From Flavobacteriales bacterium (GTDB lineage Bacteria; Bacteroidota; Bacteroidia; Flavobacteriales_F; PHOS-HE28), in assembly GCA_044507815.1 (NCBI GenBank), contig JBIQIX010000001.1:207124-271123 (forward strand): a stretch of 64,000 nucleotides of DNA, in the 5' to 3' direction. Under the pieces are notes generated by a model. That model was not told the DNA's origin. It was given only the letters and a program-made list of their open reading frames with translations, and ran no database searches. Shown piece after piece: positions 4,865-60,681 of the stretch. Position numbers and translations under genes: made by a program. The stretch's first letter is position 1, and every line of letters begins with the position of its first letter.

Positions 4865-6739
4865 ATGGATACGATCCAACCGACCAGTGGGAAGACCACT
4901 GAAGTACGCGAAAAAGTGGTGATCCTGTTTGCCGGCGACAGTGGCGACGGGATCCAGTTGACGGGGAGCCAGTTCACGGATACGAACGCACTTTTCGGCA
5001 ACGATGTAAGCACGTTCCCCAATTACCCGGCGGAGATCCGCGCGCCACAGGGCACCATTGCCGGTGTTAGCGGCTACCAGCTGCACTTCGGCAGTGTTGA
5101 CGTATTCACCCCCGGCGACCAGTGCGATACGCTGGTGGTGATGAACGCGGCCGCGCTGAAGGCCAACCTGGCCAAACTGAAGAAGGGCGGGACGATCATT
5201 GCGAACAGCGATGGCTTTGACAGCAAGAACCTGCGCTTGGCGGGCTACGCCGAGGAGGCGAACCCGCTGACGGACCACAGCCTGGACAACTACGTGCTGC
5301 ACACGGTGGATGTAACGAAGCTGACGCGCAACGCCCTGGAGGGCACCAGCCTGGGCATGAAGGAAAAGGACCGCAGCAAGAACATGTTCGTGCTGGGTTT
5401 CGTGCATTGGATGTACGGGCGCAAGCTGGACCGGCCGAAGCTTTTCCTGGAGCGCAAATTCAAGAGCCGGCCCGAGCTGCTGGAGGCGAACCTGGCGGTA
5501 CTACAGGCGGGCTACAACTTCGGCGATACGAGCGAGACCTTCACCACGCGGTACGAGGTGAAGCCCGCACCCATGCCCAAAGGGCACTACCGCAACATAA
5601 CGGGCAACCAGGGCGTGGCGATCGGGCTGATCGCCGCGGCGCAGAAGGCGGGGCTGGAGCTGTTCTACGGCAGCTACCCGATCACCCCGGCCAGCGACAT
5701 CCTGCACGAATTGTCGCGCAACAAGCATTTCGGGGTGAAGACCTTCCAGGCGGAGGATGAGATCGCGGCGGTATGTTCCTCCATCGGTGCGAGCTACGGC
5801 GGGGCCTTGGGCGCCACCGCCAGCAGCGGCCCCGGCATTGCGCTGAAGACCGAGGCCCTGGGCCTGGCGGTGATGCTGGAGATACCCTTGGTGGTGGTGA
5901 ACGTGCAGCGGGGCGGGCCCAGCACGGGCATGCCCACCAAGACCGAGCAGGCCGACCTTTGGCAGGCGGTGCACGGCCGCAATGGCGAGGCACCCATGCC
6001 GGTGCTGGCGGCCAGCAGCCCCACCGATTGCTTTGAAATGGTGTTTGAGGCGGCCAAGCTGGCCGTGGAGCACATGACGCCGGTGATGCTGCTGACGGAC
6101 GGCTACATAGCGAACGGGGCGGAGCCATGGCGCTTTCCCGAGGCGAAGGACCTGCCGGCGATCAAGCCGCCCTACGCCAGGCCGCACGAGGGCGGCGAGG
6201 AGGCGCCCTTCCTGCCCTACGAGCGCGATGGGCGCGGGGTTCGGCCCTGGGCCGTACCCGGCATGCGCGGCTTGCAGCACCGGATCGGCGGCATTGAAAA
6301 GGAGGACAAGACAGGCAACATCAGCTACGACCCGCAGAACCACCAGTTGATGGTGCGGCTGCGCGCCGGGAAAGTGGCGCGGATCGCGGATACCTACCGG
6401 CCGATCCGGCTGGACAGCGGCCCGCCCAACGGCGAACTGCTGGTGGTGGGCTGGGGTTCCACATACGGGGCCATACGCACGGCCGTGCTGGAGCTGCAAC
6501 AGGAAGGTTTCAGCGTGGCGCATGTGCACCTGCGCCACATGTTCCCCTTCAACCCGGGCCTGGGCGGCCTGCTGAAGCGCTACAACAAGGTGCTGGTGCC
6601 CGAAATGAACAATGGACAGCTGCTGCAGATGCTGCGCGCCGAATACTTAGTGGACGCGCAGGGCCTGAACAAGGTGCAGGGGCTGCCCTTCACCAGCGAC
6701 GAGATCCGCACCGGGGTGCTCAACTTGTTGACACAATGA
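4865..6739 (+). CDS. korA: 2-oxoglutarate:ferredoxin (2-oxoacid:acceptor) oxidoreductase alpha subunit
   Basis: Long conserved match pattern to KorA (…GYQLHFGS…DTLVVMNAAAL…GPSTGMPTKTEQADL…); start at MDTIQPT (ATG 4865). Confidence 0.8.
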   Translation: MDTIQPTSGKTTEVREKVVILFAGDSGDGIQLTGSQFTDTNALFGNDVSTFPNYPAEIRAPQGTIAGVSGYQLHFGSVDVFTPGDQCDTLVVMNAAALKANLAKLKKGGTIIANSDGFDSKNLRLAGYAEEANPLTDHSLDNYVLHTVDVTKLTRNALEGTSLGMKEKDRSKNMFVLGFVHWMYGRKLDRPKLFLERKFKSRPELLEANLAVLQAGYNFGDTSETFTTRYEVKPAPMPKGHYRNITGNQGVAIGLIAAAQKAGLELFYGSYPITPASDILHELSRNKHFGVKTFQAEDEIAAVCSSIGASYGGALGATASSGPGIALKTEALGLAVMLEIPLVVVNVQRGGPSTGMPTKTEQADLWQAVHGRNGEAPMPVLAASSPTDCFEMVFEAAKLAVEHMTPVMLLTDGYIANGAEPWRFPEAKDLPAIKPPYARPHEGGEEAPFLPYERDGRGVRPWAVPGMRGLQHRIGGIEKEDKTGNISYDPQNHQLMVRLRAGKVARIADTYRPIRLDSGPPNGELLVVGWGSTYGAIRTAVLELQQEGFSVAHVHLRHMFPFNPGLGGLLKRYNKVLVPEMNNGQLLQMLRAEYLVDAQGLNKVQGLPFTSDEIRTGVLNLLTQ

Positions 6740-33069: not shown

Positions 33070-35186
33070 AGGCCGTCCGCGCCCCGCTCCTGTGTCTCGC
33101 CCTGCTGGCCACCACCGCCACATTCGCGGGCCCGGACACGCTTTTCCAACAGGCCTATGCCGAACTGCAGGGCATGCTGGAAGGCAACCAACCCGCCAGC
33201 TTTGAGCGGGCGGTGTACATATCCGAGGCCGCCTACTTGGACGACACGATCGGATATGACAATTTCCGGTCCACGCTGGATGCCTACCAGTACTTCATCG
33301 GGCAGTTGGCCAAGGCGAACGACGGCTCGGACACCATGGACTTCCGCGTGCCGGTACCCCGCACCGGCCGCTTGGACATCCGCACCTTGAAGCATACCGA
33401 GGGGGAGAAGCGGGCGCTCTACCGCAACGTGCTGCACAACTGGGCCATCTTCGCCTTCCTCACCGACACCACCCGGTTCTGGGGCTTTGAGCACCTGCCC
33501 CTCGGCTACCAGTATGCCGACCCCTTCGGCATGCGGGACTGGCGCAATTCACAGGTGACCAACCTCCTTTTCGGCAAGGAGCGCAAGGGCAACTGCTTCG
33601 CGCTGGTGGCGCTGTACAAGATCCTTGCGGACCGCCTGCACAGCGGGGCCTATATCTGCACGGCGCCGCAGCACATCTACATCCAGCACCAGGACCATAA
33701 GGGCGACTGGTACAACGTGGAACTGGCCACCGGCACGCACCCCGGCGACGGATCCATCAAGACCCTGACCTACACGTGGAACGAGGGCATCACGAGCGGC
33801 ATCGCCCTGCGGCGGCTCAAGGAGGAGAGGCAGAACATTGCATTGTGCTTGGTGAACCTGGGCATGGGCCATCAGCACAAATTTGCCAAGCAAGGCGATG
33901 CGTTCGCGCTGCAATGCGCCGACCTTGCACTGAAGCACGACCCGAAGAACCTCAACGCCATGCTGCTGCGCCAGCAGGTGCTGGAAGAGCGGGTGGCCGT
34001 GTATGCTGCGGGGAAGAACCTCACGAAGGTTGAGCAGCTGCGGAAGACTCCTGCTTTCCCGCAACTGGAAGAGCAAGTGGTGCAGTTGAACGCACTGGGC
34101 TACCACCCGATGCCGCGCTACATGCAGGAGATCATCCTGGCTGAATTGGGGCACAGCGACAGGGGGCCGTATATCACCAAGAACCGCACGCCCGATCCCT
34201 TCCCCAGCCTCAAGAACGCGCCCCCCGAGGACAAGCGGTACTCCACGCTCTCGCTCGGGCGGTTTGAGGAAGTGCATGAGCAGAAAAGGGTAGAGGAGTA
34301 TGGCCGGGTGACATTGGATACCGAAGCGAAGCGGATCACGGAGTTCCGTCCCAATGCCCAAGAGGAGCTCCTGATAGACCCGGTGGCCTTCGCGTGGAGC
34401 ATTGACCCGCTGGCGGCGAAGTATCCGATGTATTCGCCGTACCACTTTTCGTCGAACCAACCTATTCATGCCCCTGAATTGGAGGGCATGGAATCCGCAT
34501 GGGACTTGAACTCGCGCGATCCCAACTATCAGAGGATGAGCCCAGCGCAACGCAAGGAGTTTACGGATCGGACCTATGGGCCATTTGCAGATGGGCTTTT
34601 CATGGCAGCTACCGTATCTCCTGCAGGGGTTGCAATGCGTGGTGCATGGGCCGTTGGTGGCTGGCGTGCCCTATTGGGTGTGACAACAAAGGAATTAGTA
34701 GAGGAAGGGGTCAGCCGAGCGTTTCAGAATGTTACGGGCATTCCATTGGTCGTATCGCCGATGGATATGTTACGGGCGGCTCGAAAAGGAAGTAAGTTCA
34801 TCGGCAACCTTGCAGACCTCAAGCCACATGAGCGGCAACGTGCTGCTGAGTATCTGCAAGGTGGTAGTGTGTTGGAGCGCACTGATATCCCAGGTACTGG
34901 GGGGGCTGACTTCAGGATTGATGGAAAGCTGTCGGAGTTCAAATCCCTGCAAGGAGAATCAGTAAATCATACAACTGGGCTGGGGCGACTTCAAGAAGCT
35001 ACAAAAAAACCAGGCGTTCAGGTGATAGACTTAGACATCCGCACTCCAGGGGGGACTTCAAATGACGCAACGACTATCTATGATCGGTTTTCAGGTACCG
35101 ACCAAGGGAAGTCATTCCTTGGTGGAGGCGGGGAAGTACGCATTGCAACACAAGATGGGTTGGTAAGCTTCGGGACTAAACATTAA
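33066..35186 (+). CDS. secreted transglutaminase-like protein, paralog B, with compositionally distinct ~240-aa C-terminal extension (candidate toxin domain)
   Basis: ATGA overlap with paralog A; N-terminal ~450 aa align with paralog A (GNCFALVALYKILADRL…APQHIYIQHQD…WYNVE); from ~34440 GC falls to ~50%. Confidence 0.55.
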   Translation: MKAVRAPLLCLALLATTATFAGPDTLFQQAYAELQGMLEGNQPASFERAVYISEAAYLDDTIGYDNFRSTLDAYQYFIGQLAKANDGSDTMDFRVPVPRTGRLDIRTLKHTEGEKRALYRNVLHNWAIFAFLTDTTRFWGFEHLPLGYQYADPFGMRDWRNSQVTNLLFGKERKGNCFALVALYKILADRLHSGAYICTAPQHIYIQHQDHKGDWYNVELATGTHPGDGSIKTLTYTWNEGITSGIALRRLKEERQNIALCLVNLGMGHQHKFAKQGDAFALQCADLALKHDPKNLNAMLLRQQVLEERVAVYAAGKNLTKVEQLRKTPAFPQLEEQVVQLNALGYHPMPRYMQEIILAELGHSDRGPYITKNRTPDPFPSLKNAPPEDKRYSTLSLGRFEEVHEQKRVEEYGRVTLDTEAKRITEFRPNAQEELLIDPVAFAWSIDPLAAKYPMYSPYHFSSNQPIHAPELEGMESAWDLNSRDPNYQRMSPAQRKEFTDRTYGPFADGLFMAATVSPAGVAMRGAWAVGGWRALLGVTTKELVEEGVSRAFQNVTGIPLVVSPMDMLRAARKGSKFIGNLADLKPHERQRAAEYLQGGSVLERTDIPGTGGADFRIDGKLSEFKSLQGESVNHTTGLGRLQEATKKPGVQVIDLDIRTPGGTSNDATTIYDRFSGTDQGKSFLGGGGEVRIATQDGLVSFGTKH

Positions 35187-35189
35187 GCC

Positions 35190-35432
35190 ATGGCACGCTG
35201 GACCTGTATATGTGGAGAAGTAATGAGCAACTCCAACAATCCTGAAATACAGTACAAGGTGTTTTCGGATGATGAGTGGATTGCATTGATGGATACGCAA
35301 ATCGAAGACCCTGCTCGCGATATCAAATGGCCACGATTTTTCTATTGGCAATGCCCAAAGTGCCGTCGGCTCCATTTCTTCGATCAGAATTTGGATAACC
35401 GGGTCGAAATCTATCGCCCTGAATACCCATGA
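35190..35432 (+). CDS. small zinc-ribbon protein (CxCG…CPKC), tandem paralog 1; candidate immunity/partner protein
   Basis: MARWTCICGEVMSNSNNPEIQYKVFSDDEWIALMDTQIEDP…WQCPKCRRLHFF; ~50% identical to next ORF; low GC. Confidence 0.5.
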   Translation: MARWTCICGEVMSNSNNPEIQYKVFSDDEWIALMDTQIEDPARDIKWPRFFYWQCPKCRRLHFFDQNLDNRVEIYRPEYP

Positions 35433-35508
35433 GCATGCAGTGCCTATCCTCGTGTCCCATTTTGGGAGATCAGATGGCCCTTCAACATTTACTGGACAAT
35501 GAGCTACC

Positions 35509-35790
35509 ATGGCTAGAATCACTTGCCGGTGCGGTCGAGCATTAAGTAACTCAAATCATCCGGAGGTTGAGTATCAGGTATTTAATGATGCCGAATGGCA
35601 TAGGCTAATGGCATCGAAGATTAACGACCCATTAGTCGATATCGAATGGCCCGAACTCTCATTCTGGAAGTGTTCCCGATGTGGCAGACTACACCTGTTC
35701 AATGGGGATAGTGACATGCCAATAGCCGCCTATGTTATCGAGCCCATATCGCCTGGAGAATCAGGTTTGGATTCCCAAGGTCAAGGATGA
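35509..35790 (+). CDS. small zinc-ribbon protein (CxCG…CSRC), tandem paralog 2
   Basis: MARITCRCGRALSNSNHPEVEYQVFNDAEWHRLMASKINDP…WKCSRCGRLHLF; paralog of 35190..35432. Confidence 0.5.
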   Translation: MARITCRCGRALSNSNHPEVEYQVFNDAEWHRLMASKINDPLVDIEWPELSFWKCSRCGRLHLFNGDSDMPIAAYVIEPISPGESGLDSQGQG

Positions 35791-35866
35791 GGGTTGTATA
35801 CCATCGACATGGGCGCAAAAGAAGGCGCTGCCCCTTTGAGCTTCTGCAACATGGAACGTCAAATCA

Positions 35867-36253
35867 TTGATGGTCAGTAAGGCCAAGGATGTAGTGTATT
35901 TGGAAACCGAGTTCGTGAAGTTGGTGCGACACTACTTCGCCTTCCTTAGGGACATAGGCTACGCTGAACCAACCATTGAGTGGCAAGAATCGGCCTTCTT
36001 TGTCTCTTGGATCGACTTAAACTACGCGGCTCCTTCTCTTAATCGAAATTGCTGTGTTTCCCTGTTCCTTAAGCAGGATGAGGGTAGTATACAACTCTCT
36101 CTGTTACAAAACGAGTATCGTACCCTCAACGACTATCTCGACTTTCAGATGTATATGAAGAAGCGCGTTGGAACACCGGTTCCACGGACCTTCCCGTTAT
36201 CAAGCGCTCAGAGAGTGACCTGGTCCGAGCATTCGAGGAGGTCATCCGCTTGA
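35867..36253 (+). CDS. small hypothetical protein in low-GC tract (possibly 3'-frameshifted)
   Basis: 128-aa ORF, AT-richer codon usage; a protein-like reading (…SDLVRAFEEVIRLNAQALREHGRGLVDGSAWEAGYYQRKD) continues in another frame to 36330. Confidence 0.35.
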   Translation: MMVSKAKDVVYLETEFVKLVRHYFAFLRDIGYAEPTIEWQESAFFVSWIDLNYAAPSLNRNCCVSLFLKQDEGSIQLSLLQNEYRTLNDYLDFQMYMKKRVGTPVPRTFPLSSAQRVTWSEHSRRSSA

Positions 36254-36650
36254 ATGCCCAAGCACTTCGCGAGCATGGCCGAGGGCTGGTTGATGGTAGT
36301 GCATGGGAGGCCGGGTACTACCAGCGGAAAGATTAACCGGTAATGTTCCAGATTGTTGCATGACAACTTCCATAAAAACCCAGAATGAGGCTTCAATGAT
36401 GTGCAGGTCAATCGATCCCTTCCCCAGCCTCAATGTAAGCTCCCCCTGATCAGGTACACGGGTTGGTAAAGGTCGGCATTTCGCCGGGATGTTTGTTTGG
36501 TAGTTTCTCGATCTTTGCTGTACCGGTGATAACGGAAGCAGGCACTGCTGGAGAGCAACCTGCCAGGGATAGGCCGGTGACCGGAGGATGAACATGGGTA
36601 TGGGCGATTTGCCCTGCCCCGTCCTTTGGTCCAATGCCTTGAAAAACTCA

Positions 36651-37514
36651 TTACGCGGCAGGCTGGTCCAGCAGGAAGGTTGGAAAGTGCGTCCGGCTCC
36701 CGGTAAATGCGGCCAGCATCGCCCCGTACTTCATCAGGAACTCCCGCGGGGTGAGGTCAAGCAGGGAATCGTGTGGTCGTTCTTGGTTGTAGCTCCAGAT
36801 GAACTGTGCCGTAAGGGCGTGCAGTTGCTCAAGGTCCTCGAACAGGTAGGCATCAAGCACTTCCTCCCGGTAGGTCCTGTTGAAGCGCTCGACCAGACCG
36901 TTCTGCATGGGACGCCCCTTCTCGATGAAGGTCAGCCCGATGCCATTGCGCTCTGCCCAGAGTTCCAATTCATGGGCAATGAACTCCGGGCCATTGTCCA
37001 CGCGCAAACGTTCGGGCTTGCCACGCCACTCGATCAGCTTGTCCAGTGCACGGATCACGTACTGCGACCGGATCGAGGTGTCCACCGTGATGTTCAGGGC
37101 CTCGCGGCCGAAGTCGTCGATCACGTTGAAGGTGCGCACGTTGGTGGCGTTCAAAAGCCGGTCGGCCATGAAATCCATGCTCCAAGTGATGTTCGGACCG
37201 ATGGGAAGGCACAGTGGTTGCTTCACTCGCTCCGGCACGCGTCTTTTGGTGGGCCGGCGCAGGTTGAGCCCGGCCGTGGTGTAGAGCCGGTGCAGCCGTT
37301 TGTGGTTCACCACGCGGCCATCCTTGCGCATGCGCTTGTACACCTTCCAAAAGCCCCAACTGGGCTTCTTCGTCACCCAGGCATTCATGTGCTCGATCAC
37401 CTCTATGTCGTCCTTGGGGCTGGGCACATAGCGGTATACGCTTTGGCTCAACCCCAGCAGTTTGCAGACCCGCCGAACACTGTGCTTGCACTGCGTCACA
37501 AGCCAATGTGCCAT
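36651..37514 (-). CDS. IS3-family transposase OrfB (DDE integrase core)
   Basis: …ITWSMDFM…VDNGPEF…LVERFNRTYREEVLD… rve-domain signature. Confidence 0.85.
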   Translation of the reverse strand: MAHWLVTQCKHSVRRVCKLLGLSQSVYRYVPSPKDDIEVIEHMNAWVTKKPSWGFWKVYKRMRKDGRVVNHKRLHRLYTTAGLNLRRPTKRRVPERVKQPLCLPIGPNITWSMDFMADRLLNATNVRTFNVIDDFGREALNITVDTSIRSQYVIRALDKLIEWRGKPERLRVDNGPEFIAHELELWAERNGIGLTFIEKGRPMQNGLVERFNRTYREEVLDAYLFEDLEQLHALTAQFIWSYNQERPHDSLLDLTPREFLMKYGAMLAAFTGSRTHFPTFLLDQPAA

Positions 37515-37533
37515 TCCCGCTTCTCGACGAGCC

Positions 37534-37800
37534 CTAGGGCTTTTTTCCCAGGATCTCCTTTAGGATGGCCTTGTCCAGGGTGAGGTCGGCCACCTTCAGC
37601 TTCAACTTGGTGTTCTCCTCCCGCAAGGCGCGCAGCTCCTTGAGTTCGCTCACGCCCATGCCGCCATACTTGGCCTTCCACTGGTAGAAGGTGGGCTGGC
37701 TCACGCCATGTTCCCTGCAGATCTCGGCCACCTTGCGGCCTTGTTCATGTTCGCGCAGCATCGCCACGATCTGCGCTTCCGTCCATTTGCTCTTCTTCAT
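37534..37800 (-). CDS. IS3-family transposase OrfA (HTH)
   Basis: MKKSKWTEAQIVAMLREHEQGRKVAEICREHGVSQPTFYQWKAKY… canonical IS3 OrfA; ends …LKEILGKKP at the AAAAAAG site. Confidence 0.85.
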   Translation of the reverse strand: MKKSKWTEAQIVAMLREHEQGRKVAEICREHGVSQPTFYQWKAKYGGMGVSELKELRALREENTKLKLKVADLTLDKAILKEILGKKP

Positions 37801-38050
37801 TGTTCCAAAGTTCAGGTGTTGGTGTGGATCCTACTTATCCACGCACCTGATTTCGGGGGAGCTTACAATGCAGCTCGAATCAGCGGTTGCGCGAACCCCT
37901 TCCCGGTATTGGGCCTAGGCACGGCGGCCAACGCCTTGTGTTGCATTTAGGAGCTATGCTGGAACCATGCACCACCAACTGCCGGATAATCCGTCAGTGC
38001 AAGGTCGGGGAAAGTGTCATAACTTTGCTCTGTCAATACCCATTCACACC

Positions 38051-58612: not shown

Positions 58613-59557
58613 GTGCCGAACCTTGCCGAAACCGATTTCCTGCGCCTGAAGCTTGGCAACGGGAGCGCACCGCACAAACCGATCCTGTTGTTGGCGGTAT
58701 TGCGTGCATTTGACCGGGGACTGATCATAGAGAACCGGATCGAGCCCAGCGCGGAGTTGATCGATCTGTTCATCGGCCATTGGGCGCGATTGGTACCGGA
58801 AGGCCGCTATCAGCGCCGCTTTTTCCTGCCGTTCTTCCATCTGCGCAGCGAAAGGTCCGGGCTATGGAAGCTGCATGCCATGCCGGGCTTCGAAACGCAC
58901 GCCTTAACACGCGCACGCTCGATCAAAAGCCTCGGGGCGCTTCTCGCATTCCAAGCCTGGGCGGAACTGCGGCCCGACGTATACCAACGGTGGCTGGTGC
59001 CGGAAAATCGCGCGGCGGACCGCTTGCTCATCATGGCGCGCTATTTCCCCGGCCAGTCATTGCCGCACGAGCTGCCCAGCCAGATCGGGCTGTTCGAGCA
59101 GCAGGTACAGCACGATAGCCCCGAGACGTATGTGGCGCGGCAACTGCAGTTGCTGCAGCATGATGAGGAGGAGGAACAAGTGCTGCGCGGCGCGGCATTC
59201 AAGCGCAAGGTGCCCGAGCTGTACACCTACACCTGTGCCTTTACAGGGCTGCACGTGAGCAACGCGCGGAACACCCGCCTGGTGGATGCCTGCCACATTG
59301 TGCCCTGGGCCGATTCGTTCGATGATACGGTCACCAACGGCATTGCCCTTTCACCCACGCTGCACCGTGCATTTGACCGCGGAATGATCGGCATAGCGGA
59401 CGATTACTCCGTGATCGTGGCCCATGACCTCCGCGAAACGGACAGCCCGCATGCCATACGCCCGTTGCACGGACAAAAATTGTACCTGCCCCGCAACAAC
59501 CGCCATTGGCCCGATCGGCGGAACCTGGCCAAACACCGGGAAAGGTGGGGATTGTAG
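58613..59557 (+). CDS. HNH_2-type endonuclease (putative restriction endonuclease) with N-terminal recognition domain
   Basis: C-terminal C(A)FTG…LVDACHIVPW…NGIALSPTLHRAFDRGMIGI matches the HNH_2 pattern (C..TG…aHIvPw…NG..L….H.aFDrG.I); N-terminal …HKPILLLAVLRAFDRGLI… domain; GTG start. Confidence 0.6.
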   Translation: MPNLAETDFLRLKLGNGSAPHKPILLLAVLRAFDRGLIIENRIEPSAELIDLFIGHWARLVPEGRYQRRFFLPFFHLRSERSGLWKLHAMPGFETHALTRARSIKSLGALLAFQAWAELRPDVYQRWLVPENRAADRLLIMARYFPGQSLPHELPSQIGLFEQQVQHDSPETYVARQLQLLQHDEEEEQVLRGAAFKRKVPELYTYTCAFTGLHVSNARNTRLVDACHIVPWADSFDDTVTNGIALSPTLHRAFDRGMIGIADDYSVIVAHDLRETDSPHAIRPLHGQKLYLPRNNRHWPDRRNLAKHRERWGL

Positions 59558-59598
59558 GCCGGTGCAAACCGCTTTGCTGCAAGCCGTTCAAGCCCCGA

Positions 59599-60414
59599 TC
59601 ACTTGCCGAACACCCGTTGGCGATGGTAGGCCAAGTACTCGGGTTTGGGGCCGTGGGACCCAGAAGGAATGGCCAACGGCCTGCCTTCATAGGCCTTGAA
59701 TTGCTGGGCGATGGTGGCATGAACGAAATGATCGCGCAGGGTAGGGGAGCAGACAAGGCGGAAGTGCTGGTCGAACGTGATGAGGCCGCGGTCGAAGGCA
59801 CGGTCGTGGAGGGCATTGAGGGCGATGCCGTTCCGGGGGTCCAGTCGATGTTCTTCCACAGCGTTCCAGGGAATAATATGGGAAGCGATCAGCAGCTCGC
59901 GCACGGCCATGCCGGTGACCGCACACCGGCCATCGTACGCGTTCAAAACGGCCTGGCGGAAAAAGCGTTGGCCCCGGCGGATCTGCACGGCGGCCGTACT
60001 TTCTGTGGGACCTTCAGGCATGGTCAGCGGAGCAATTTTCTCCGGCTGCACTTCTATTGGGCTATCCGCATCCCCAGTGAGCAATTCGGCCAGCAGGCCT
60101 TCGCTCTCCGCCGCCAGCGTGCCGTATTGCTGATGGAATTCGTGCCACACCGTGCGGTCCAATGCACTGGCCCCAGACAAGCCCTTGATCCCGCGAGCAG
60201 CCAGTCGTTCATCCAACGAGGCCAGGTTGCTCAACTTCATCGCCACACTACCGGGCGTACGCCCCATGCGCTGCGCGACGTTGATCAACACCGGATTGCC
60301 CTGATGGTAAAGCCCAAAGGGGATCTTCTCGTACAGGTTGAGAAGGATCAACAACTCTTCCCGGGTCCATGATCTGCGGGTGGTGGCCATCAAAATGCCT
60401 GGCTTTTCCGCCAC
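59599..60414 (-). CDS. HNH_2-type endonuclease (putative restriction endonuclease), paralog with different N-terminal domain
   Basis: …GRCAVTGMAVRELLIASHIIPW…NGIALNALHDRAFDRGLITF… same HNH_2 core; N-terminal …RSWTREELLILLNLYEKIPFG…. Confidence 0.6.
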   Translation of the reverse strand: MAEKPGILMATTRRSWTREELLILLNLYEKIPFGLYHQGNPVLINVAQRMGRTPGSVAMKLSNLASLDERLAARGIKGLSGASALDRTVWHEFHQQYGTLAAESEGLLAELLTGDADSPIEVQPEKIAPLTMPEGPTESTAAVQIRRGQRFFRQAVLNAYDGRCAVTGMAVRELLIASHIIPWNAVEEHRLDPRNGIALNALHDRAFDRGLITFDQHFRLVCSPTLRDHFVHATIAQQFKAYEGRPLAIPSGSHGPKPEYLAYHRQRVFGK

Positions 60415-60434: not shown

Positions 60435-60681
60435 ATGAACCACGACAAGGAATACATCATTCGCCTGAATGGCCTCGACCTTGCCCAAGTGATCGATGGG
60501 CTGGAGGTGCGTGCCGACGCATGGCAACACACCGCCGCCTACCTCGAAACCGGCGAAGCCTTCAACCCGGACTTCGTGGTGAGTATGCAATGAGGGAGCA
60601 GAATTCCGGGAGCTTGCCGGACATTACGAACAGATCCTTGCATTGATGAAGGAACAGTTGACTCAACAGGACCAGCCATGA
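60435..60681 (+). pseudogene. small ORF with apparent +1 frameshift near 60580-60595, translationally coupled (ATGA) to downstream gene
   Basis: Frame 0: MNHDKEYIIRLNGLDLAQVIDGLEVRADAWQHTAAYLETGEAFNPDFVVSMQ* (to 60593); frame +1 continues protein-like …AEFRELAGHYEQILALMKEQLTQQDQP* ending in TGA that overlaps ATG 60678. Confidence 0.3.

Follow-up and report, generated by a model that had tools for sequence, protein, structure and literature searches.

Which enzymes are encoded by two adjacent nuclease genes that face each other, with no methyltransferase in sight, in the chromosome of a flavobacterium? The genes, which we call P1 and P2, lie in a stretch of 64,000 nucleotides (the window) from the metagenome-assembled genome (MAG) of a Flavobacteriales bacterium (contig JBIQIX010000001.1, positions 207,124 to 271,123). 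An earlier interpretation of the letters and open reading frames (ORFs) of this stretch, hereafter the sequence-only reading, had described them as a small defence islet made of two modification-dependent nucleases of the HNH_2 type. Our analyses favour two solitary restriction-type nucleases, of which P1 would be a phosphorothioate (PT)-dependent Type IV enzyme and P2 would most likely attack 5-methylcytosine (m5C)-type DNA, with the product of a small neighbouring gene, smallA, as a possible modulator; we give this combined explanation about an even chance. The P2 family itself is catalogued and uncharacterised, and stands out by its genetic link to dead C5 methyltransferases, to Vsr and to an acidic partner.

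A convergent pair of HNH_2 genes

The two genes and the spacer between them are as follows.

58613..59557, + strand: P1, predicted PT-dependent Type IV nuclease with a sulfur-binding domain (SBD) and an HNH domain; ORF of 314 amino acids (aa)
59558..59598, no strand: spacer of 41 bp between the stop codons of P1 and P2, the empty form of a cassette-insertion junction; read from the sequence
59599..60390, - strand: P2, nuclease with an all-alpha N-terminal domain and an HNH_2 domain, 263 aa; the raw ORF reaches 60414 (271 aa)

Both ORFs are found where the sequence-only reading had placed them, on opposite strands and convergent, and both products exceed the gathering threshold of Pfam HNH_2 (PF13391; 21 bits), with 49.2 bits for P1 (E 4.8e-13) and 47.6 bits for P2 (E 1.5e-12). 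The distance of 42 bp given between their ends is correct as a coordinate difference, but the intergenic bases between the stop codons number 41 (59558-59598). The pair had been said to span 58613 to 60414; the P1 coordinates hold, whereas the end on the P2 side overshoots by 24 nt. P2 almost certainly starts at the ATG at 60390, the start that gives the 263 aa of nearly all its homologues and of all gene calls made on identical contigs. The quoted HNH_2 motifs are present in both proteins (CAFTG...ACHIVPW...NGIALSPTLHRAFDRGMI in P1 and CAVTG...ASHIIPW...NGIALNALHDRAFDRGLI in P2), but the first of them is strictly C-x-x-T-G rather than C-x-T-G. P1 and P2 can be aligned over their nuclease halves only, with ~31-36% identity, and their N-terminal regions are indeed unrelated. 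No intrinsic terminator was found in the spacer, and a scan for intergenic terminators and promoters was uninformative.

The window is chromosomal Bacteroidota DNA of ~62% G+C with housekeeping genes that include those of GldB/GldC, SmpB, NAD synthase and KDO transferase, and the composition of P1 and P2 is ordinary for it. The nearest relatives of both proteins are found in Flavobacteriales and Cryomorphaceae MAGs, and the sequences are 98-100% identical across independent samples. The homologues are patchy in distribution, unlike universal housekeeping genes. The reported lack of a methyltransferase partner was confirmed and extended. No DNA methyltransferase was detected among the 49 proteins of the window by PADLOC and Pfam scans, a tblastn search with a C5 methyltransferase was also empty, and there is none in the 10 kb past the window edge, as read from an NCBI MAG contig that carries an identical copy of the locus (L128). 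The surroundings of P2 are therefore free of methyltransferases for ~59 kb on one side and 10 kb on the other. Similarly, no model for Dnd, Ssp or Pbe proteins was matched among the 49 proteins of these 64 kb or in the 10 kb past the edge.

P1 is a predicted phosphorothioate-dependent enzyme

P1 is composed of two domains.

58631..59035, + strand: sulfur-binding domain of P1, approximately aa 7-141, with cavity residues H21, K22, L72, P73 and H76; from the alignment to 8h0l
59234..59395, + strand: HNH_2 catalytic core of P1, aa 208-261; Pfam PF13391, E 4.8e-13

Profile matches, five identical sulfur-cavity residues and an EcoWI-type motif lead us to file P1, with good confidence, as a new member of the SBD-HNH family of PT-dependent Type IV enzymes (the EcoWI/SprMcrA kind), whose substrate we infer from this kinship. 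The NCBIfam model NF045808 PT-DNA_restrict ('phosphorothioated DNA-binding restriction endonuclease') aligns with aa 14-310 of P1 (E 1.4e-27). In HMMER alignments, the single P1 sequence matches the SBDHga1 structure (8h0l) with an E value of 3.4e-6. A profile built from 43 P1 homologues matches 8h0l over the whole domain (E 2.3e-19) and the SBD of ScoMcrA (5zmo, E 1.2e-3), as well as the HNH domains of VcaM4I and TagI. The sulfur cavity of SBDHga (8H0L) is made up of H25, K26, L75, P76 and H79 (PMC10602919); all five have identical counterparts in P1, at positions that are nearly invariant among the 43 homologues. The HKPILLLAVL segment of P1 is a signature of the SBDs of PT-dependent Type IV enzymes, and the KPzzLL..PF..L..W motif reported for active EcoWI-type enzymes (PMC7461809) is found in P1. 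In the nuclease domain, C208, H228, N242 and H251 are invariant in the same homologues. By its SBD signature, P1 thus bears out the part of the sequence-only reading that took it for a modification-dependent nuclease.

P1 resembles the known SBD-HNH PT-dependent enzymes in the order of its two domains, its approximate size, its C-terminal HNH_2 domain and the lack of linked dnd genes. It differs from them by low identity, the resemblance of its SBD to the solved ones (8H0L, 7CC9 and 5ZMO) being at the domain level only, and by its host, a Bacteroidota (Flavobacteriales MAG). In addition, the closest solved SBD, that of Hga, has a PD-(D/E)XK nuclease as its natural fusion partner, whereas the SBD of P1 is fused to an HNH domain.

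EcoWI, SprMcrA, Ksp11411I, Bsp305I and other enzymes of this type bind DNA at sites with a PT modification and cleave it at a distance of a few bases; in vivo, dnd+ plasmids are restricted by EcoWI, and EcoWI-type enzymes avoid dnd clusters (PMC7461809). The absence of Dnd, Ssp and Pbe genes from the 64 kb fits this avoidance. In the mechanism that we propose, the SBD of P1 would dock on PT (Rp-PS) linkages that dnd/ssp-type systems of foreign origin have introduced, and the HNH domain of P1 would cut nearby. Incoming PT-modified DNA would thus be destroyed and the host, devoid of PT, spared, as expected for Type IV logic. P1 would bring PT-sensing restriction to uncultured Flavobacteriales, and it could supply a further SBD for PT-mapping tools.

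P2 belongs to a large family with an all-alpha N-terminal domain

P2 also harbours two domains.

60076..60390, - strand: N-terminal domain of P2, aa 1-105, six helices; AlphaFold2 model and invariant columns
59770..59925, - strand: HNH_2 catalytic core of P2, aa 156-207 of the 263-aa form; Pfam PF13391, E 1.5e-12

The P2 family is already catalogued bioinformatically as a restriction-modification (R-M) nuclease. The PADLOC profile PDLC04132 ('HNH') matches aa 9-270 of P2 over profile positions 22-273 of 286 (E 6.4e-86). It is the family's own profile, as relatives of P2 from four phyla, including those of Verrucomicrobiota, Neisseria and Hymenobacter, all match it with E values of 1e-85 to 1e-119. 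A second PADLOC profile, PDLC03546 ('HNH, Type II restriction enzyme'), matches P2 over its full length (E 3.7e-37). Both profiles are components of the PADLOC system RM_type_HNH. That system needs an adjacent methyltransferase, in contrast to the P2 locus, which has none in the window and the following 10 kb. No biochemically characterised member of the P2 family was apparent in the literature that we searched.

The HNH half of P2 (aa 136-271) matches VcaM4I (6yex, E 7e-15), and no other part of P2 has a solved relative by sequence. Among 40 homologues, C156, H171, N187 and H195 never vary. VcaM4I (6YEX) is an EVE-HNH enzyme dependent on 5-methylcytosine or 5-hydroxymethylcytosine (PMC7897488). 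Like VcaM4I and the SRA-HNH enzyme TagI (6GHS), both P1 and P2 have homologous HNH_2 domains and, within ~260-310 aa, the order sensor, linker and HNH domain from the N- to the C-terminus. However, the sensor of P2 is an all-alpha domain of six helices, not a PUA/EVE or SRA beta-barrel, and a base-flipping pocket is not evident.

The AlphaFold2 model of the P2 N-terminal domain has six helices and no strands (predicted local distance difference test score, pLDDT, 89.9), and a Foldseek search of the PDB gave no similar structure (best match, E 4.6). The sequence-only reading had raised an SRA/SAD-like or winged-helix domain; for P2, a winged helix and an SRA/PUA reader are both ruled out by an all-alpha model with no sequence or fold match to them. 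Pfam Myb_DNA-binding gives a weak match (E 0.048). The domain, of ~105 residues, is very strongly conserved, with the signature W8..Y20.K22..F25G26...R44......M51K52L53.N55.A57S58.D60...G67..G70L71...D78...W82, and the region of its recognition helix is nearly invariant across phyla, whichever methyltransferase adjoins. It is probably a DNA-binding domain. The 6mA (N6-methyladenine)-dependent Type IV enzymes SruGXI and HpaD253I, which carry a winged helix before the HNH domain (PMC11037411), are akin to P2 in length (224-283 aa) and in having a helical N-terminal domain of DNA-binding type, and they are encoded by solitary genes, at times beside inactivated methyltransferase genes. In contrast to them, the P2 model has no beta-wing, and the recurrent neighbours of the P2 family are C5 methyltransferases and Vsr, not N6-adenine enzymes.

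An exhaustive phmmer search with the P2 N-terminal domain alone matched 1403 representatives of clusters formed at 50% identity. Nearly all the larger representatives that we scanned carry a P2-type N-terminal domain before an HNH_2 domain. Variants include P0244, which has two tandem copies of the N-terminal domain, and a protein in which it follows an HD domain. In P0378 (681 aa), an HTH_3 domain, a complete C5 cytosine methyltransferase, the P2 N-terminal domain and an HNH_2 domain are joined in a single chain. P2-type proteins do not appear to be notably phage-borne, as IMG/VR yielded one full-length relative (37% identity) and 11 matches to the HNH part only.

P2 homologues are found next to C5 methyltransferases and their remnants

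We collected 111 loci encoding P2 homologues and, for ~89 non-redundant ones, took a Pfam census of the flanking ORFs that reach 130 aa, 298 in total. The most frequent neighbours are C5 DNA methylases (14), other HNH_2 proteins (12), Vsr mismatch endonucleases (8) and PIN proteins (6), and no family of N6 or N4 methyltransferases recurs among these ORFs. Judging from this gene content, the P2 family is specifically tied to m5C biology.

Many of these methyltransferase genes are dead. In ~10 loci, remnants of C5 methyltransferase genes that start at motif I and break off at differing points are convergent on the gene of the P2 homologue. Those of L018 and L020 cover positions 1-209 of the 324 in the Pfam profile, and those of L023, L025, L056, L061, L065 and L087 are much shorter. 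Their ends lie 14-122 nt from the P2 stop codon, save in L018 (657 nt), and the adjoining P2 homologues retain every catalytic residue. Truncated C5 methyltransferases next to intact P2-family genes are found both in Verrucomicrobiota-type contigs and in N. gonorrhoeae. The juxtaposition of dead methyltransferases and intact nucleases is possibly the signature of methyltransferases in conflict with methyl-dependent nucleases. We also considered that a P2 cassette had been inserted into a methyltransferase gene, but no C-terminal methyltransferase fragment is present beyond P2 and smallA, which points to replacements or deletions rather than simple insertions.

The complete methyltransferases near P2 homologues often have a nuclease of their own, which belongs to the Eco47II family in L110 and is another HNH_2 protein, encoded in operon, in L008. 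In L006, the methyltransferase gene follows smallA, forming a smallA-methyltransferase operon divergent from P2, and is itself followed by the gene of a UvrD/PD-(D/E)XK protein. The short contig L052 contains only a simple convergent pair of a P2 homologue and a complete methyltransferase. The methyltransferases near P2 homologues have 24-63% identity to the methyltransferase part of P0378.

The P2 homologue of N. gonorrhoeae (UniProt Q5F9T7, 41% identity) is encoded in the pheS-pheT hotspot and is intact in >1000 contigs. Its gene sits behind those of Vsr and of a C5 methyltransferase cut by AT-rich DNA that carries an acidic 81-aa ORF; the truncated gene lies at positions 3332-3733 of L114, with the break exactly at motif IV. 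This truncated methyltransferase, NgoAXIII, was described as a non-active remnant in an independent methylome study, which also reported the dam/drg exchange of Neisseria, in which the gene of a methyl-dependent nuclease takes the place of a methyltransferase gene (bioRxiv 10.1101/630434). Inactivated methyltransferases beside modification-dependent enzymes had been noted earlier (PMC11037411). The same pheS-pheT site of Neisseria also harbours R.NmeDI (351 aa), a distance-cutting Type II enzyme for which an HNH domain is not mentioned (PMC2095814). The pheS-pheT cassettes differ from the P2 locus by their co-directional gene order and a different small upstream ORF.

Large UvrD-helicase proteins are also encoded beside P2 homologues in a Flavobacteriales MAG (L006, 5355-8582) and on a Hymenobacter plasmid (L115, 6086-8980). 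The one in L006 also has a PD-(D/E)XK domain and is directly downstream of smallA and the C5 methyltransferase gene, on the same strand. These proteins may represent a separate defence module.

Small partner genes are divergent from P2

Two conserved small genes divergent from P2 had been missed in the sequence-only reading.

60435..60681, + strand: smallA, gene of an acidic two-helix protein divergent from P2, frameshifted; the present ORF is 60435-60593, 52 aa versus ~82 aa
60678..61040, + strand: smallB, ORF of a 120-aa protein; its start overlaps the ancestral smallA stop codon (ATGA)

The smallA gene (~82 aa) is conserved in divergent orientation 42-120 nt upstream of P2 in ~30 loci of Flavobacteriales and Verrucomicrobiota-type contigs, and at least about one in three P2 loci lacks it. 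Its product is strongly acidic (isoelectric point 4.3-4.7, net charge -8 to -11) and is modelled as a short extended segment followed by two long helices (pLDDT 88). No family, PDB sequence or fold match was found for it; a fold match to the immunity protein Tsi2 is not significant (E ~8). That smallA might be a regulator, either a controller (C) protein or of the ribbon-helix-helix type, is not supported, given an acidic hairpin of two long helices with no helix-turn-helix motif and no PDB match. It shows no homology with the 81-aa ORF upstream of the gonococcal gene (hhalign probability 0.2).

Compared with five homologues, the smallA gene of the window lacks 2 bp near 60580, and its C-terminal helix can be read in the +1 frame. 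The frameshift is real and fixed, as six or more independent assemblies of this organism give the same 52-aa call, and P2 is intact. Both facts speak against an essential antitoxin role of smallA here. Three independent short assemblies of the same organism (L031, L032 and L033) are all broken inside smallA, ~93-113 nt past the P2 start, which hints at strain heterogeneity or a repeat.

The smallB gene (~115-120 aa) often follows smallA with a 4-bp ATGA overlap (L002, L003, L004, L013, L014, L029, L036 and L037). Its product has no Pfam, NCBIfam or PADLOC match and exists as two divergent types with ~40% identity between them. The smallB gene of the window is 96% identical to that of L004 (9337-9699) and 89% to that of L014 (3514-3921), and the adjacent P2 genes are 77% and 58% identical, respectively. 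These identities suggest that the smallB segment was recently recombined.

Type IV and other possible roles of P2

The explanations differ mainly in what methylation does to P2. That P2 is a Type IV, m5C-dependent nuclease seems to us plausible, at slightly less than even confidence, and even the direction of its methylation dependence is something that we infer. P2 would attack m5C-type DNA because its family repeatedly occurs beside C5 methyltransferases, Vsr and, especially, dead methyltransferase remnants. We favour Type IV because the intact nuclease persists beside dead methyltransferases across whole species, because its nuclease domain is closest to known modification-dependent enzymes, because the sensor hardly varies from phylum to phylum in spite of nearby methyltransferases with no more than 24-63% identity to that of P0378, and because P2 adjoins another Type IV enzyme, P1. 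The locus would then comprise two independent nucleases with a common sensor-linker-HNH_2 plan, facing each other across a junction that takes up defence or toxin-antitoxin (TA) cassettes in relatives. The six-helix domain of P2 would position an HNH_2 domain most similar to those of known modification-dependent enzymes, m5C-type modified DNA would be attacked following Type IV logic, and the acidic smallA protein might be a modulator, inactivated in this organism.

Several observations run counter to this explanation. The P0378 fusion, the pair of L052, the smallA-methyltransferase operon of L006 and the Type II label of PDLC03546 would better fit a Type II enzyme blocked by methylation. The N-terminal domain of P2 has no known modified-base pocket or structural relative and might be a protein-interaction domain. 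The frameshift of smallA beside an intact P2 makes any role of smallA putative. As for P1, it scores 96.6 bits on NF045808, under the curated cutoff of 180, with an alignment that spans profile positions 15-280 of 284; this model is of the NCBI 'exception' type, which we take to be narrow.

The sequence-only reading had held both nucleases to be modification-dependent. For P2 this is not established, and a live rival is that P2 is the nuclease of a Type II R-M system with a C5 methyltransferase, which would cleave its target sites when they are unmethylated and be blocked by m5C. It would be an orphan here, protected by an unlinked methyltransferase or decaying, and P1 would still be a PT-dependent Type IV enzyme. 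This possibility, which we consider unlikely, accounts for the complete C5 methylase and P2-type module joined in P0378, for the full-length match to PDLC03546 and the PADLOC/DefenseFinder labelling, for C5 methylase and Vsr as top neighbours and for the simple convergent pair with a complete methyltransferase in L052. A reader, linker and nuclease build also suits distance cutters such as R.NmeDI (PMC2095814). However, a methylation-blocked nuclease is hard to reconcile with intact homologues beside certainly inactive methyltransferases (~10 loci, and throughout N. gonorrhoeae), which would be lethal unless another methyltransferase covers the sites. Several of the complete neighbouring methyltransferases have their own nuclease, the neighbouring methyltransferases are diverse whereas the N-terminal domain is nearly invariant, and there is no methyltransferase over the ~59 kb and 10 kb that surround P2.

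A different role would be that of a toxin-antitoxin-like or abortive-infection pair, in which smallA binds and silences the nuclease and its loss on infection frees non-specific cleavage by P2. The tight divergent linkage in ~30 loci of two phyla, the strong acidity of smallA, atypical for a DNA-binding regulator, its helical hairpin fold, the acidic ORF that also precedes the gonococcal gene and an islet rich in TA cassettes all argue for such a pair. We nevertheless regard it as very unlikely. The organism is viable with an intact P2 and a smallA cut to 52 aa, at least about one in three P2 loci has no smallA, the gonococcal small ORF has no homology to it, and the link to C5 methyltransferases and Vsr is left unexplained. 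Finally, one or both genes could be inactive relics held by synteny, and their adjacency devoid of defensive meaning, as the pseudogene state of smallA and the absence of modification genes nearby might suggest. This appears highly improbable, as both ORFs are intact with all catalytic and sulfur-cavity residues conserved, the sequences are 98-100% identical across independent samples and the pair has been kept across a divergence of ~60-77% identity.

The m5C-dependent Type IV explanation can be extended to a broader proposal, to which we give only a low probability. P2 would be a new modification reader, with a compact six-helix m5C-sensing domain unrelated to SRA, PUA, winged-helix or McrA/McrB domains. 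The genes of its family would spread by displacing or disrupting resident C5 methyltransferase genes ('dcm-replacing genes', like drg of Neisseria), and the P1/P2 junction would be an attachment site for TA cassettes without an integrase. If true, methyltransferase displacement would explain why so many truncated methyltransferases abut these genes, from Verrucomicrobiota to N. gonorrhoeae.

The answer matters beyond this locus. The P2 family is large, with 1403 clusters for its N-terminal domain, and is already counted by defence-finding software; a homologue is present in every gonococcus examined, and the sensor domain has had no structural or functional description to date. Settling whether P2 is blocked by methylation or depends on it would alter the reading of 'RM_type_HNH' hits in genome surveys and assign a function to Q5F9T7, a conserved gene of the gonococcus.

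The P1/P2 junction is a site of insertions in relatives

The convergent P1/P2 pair recurs in ~9 further distinct loci of the same Flavobacteriales clade, with the two genes adjoining or with cargo between them, and it is kept across ~60-77% identity. The pairing is thus more than chance. The pair is missing from ~7 members of the clade, which have P2 alone. P1 and P2 adjoin each other in L006, L007, L014 and L035, and cargo of 0.5-4.9 kb lies between them in L037, L002 (HigB-type TA), L001 (AbiEii and DUF6577) and L003 (ParE, HigB and ORF6N modules).

The 2.3-kb AbiEii/DUF6577 insert of L001 is flanked by 148-bp direct repeats with 90% identity (2598-2744 and 4949-5096), and the repeated sequence comprises the spacer together with the terminal 37 nt of P1 and the terminal ~96 nt of P2 on either side of it. 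In L003 (9650-13216) and L011 (2064-3310), multiple fragments of the P2 3' end are interleaved with cargo genes, and the junction repeats are 75-95% identical. No integrase is visible in the junction cargo of these relatives. Given the repeats and cargo at this point in relatives, the 41-bp junction of the window is the empty state of an insertion hotspot. The junction looks like a cassette array of a new type, without an integrase.

The two nuclease genes need not be contiguous, and most simply they are independent genes that bracket a variable islet. Other sensor-HNH_2 genes cluster elsewhere: an EcoRII-N-HNH_2 gene is next to that of the P2 homologue in L028, a distant SBD-HNH gene is in tandem with it in L095, and another is 4.7 kb away in L086. 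Such independent clustering supports the idea of a defence islet. The small islet first proposed from the two genes alone therefore stands, as this site behaves as a defence and TA islet in relatives.

Other features of the window and its surroundings

A 66-aa ORF with a lipoprotein-like signal (MRHAIFVPCMVAICALLCAC...) is located between the gene of an AI-2E transporter and P1 (58323-58523, + strand); every identical contig has a gene call for it. Further away, the region from 34000 to 38000 of the window has a low G+C content (0.48-0.59 vs ~0.62) and small ORFs with atypical codon usage, then two ORFs resembling parts of IS3-family transposases (36651-37514 and 37534-37800, - strand). It is probably a mobile insertion. 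Single proteins of the window match the PADLOC models DrmC (1.4e-26), mad3 (5.5e-26), HEAT-ARM_XIII, AriA, mad8 and HEC-01A, which may be generic domain matches.

Past the right edge of the window, L128 encodes a DUF4160/DUF2442 gene pair (5799-6445) ~3.5 kb beyond smallB, which we suspect to be of the TA type. Split fragments of MM_CoA_mutase in the same neighbourhood suggest gene decay.

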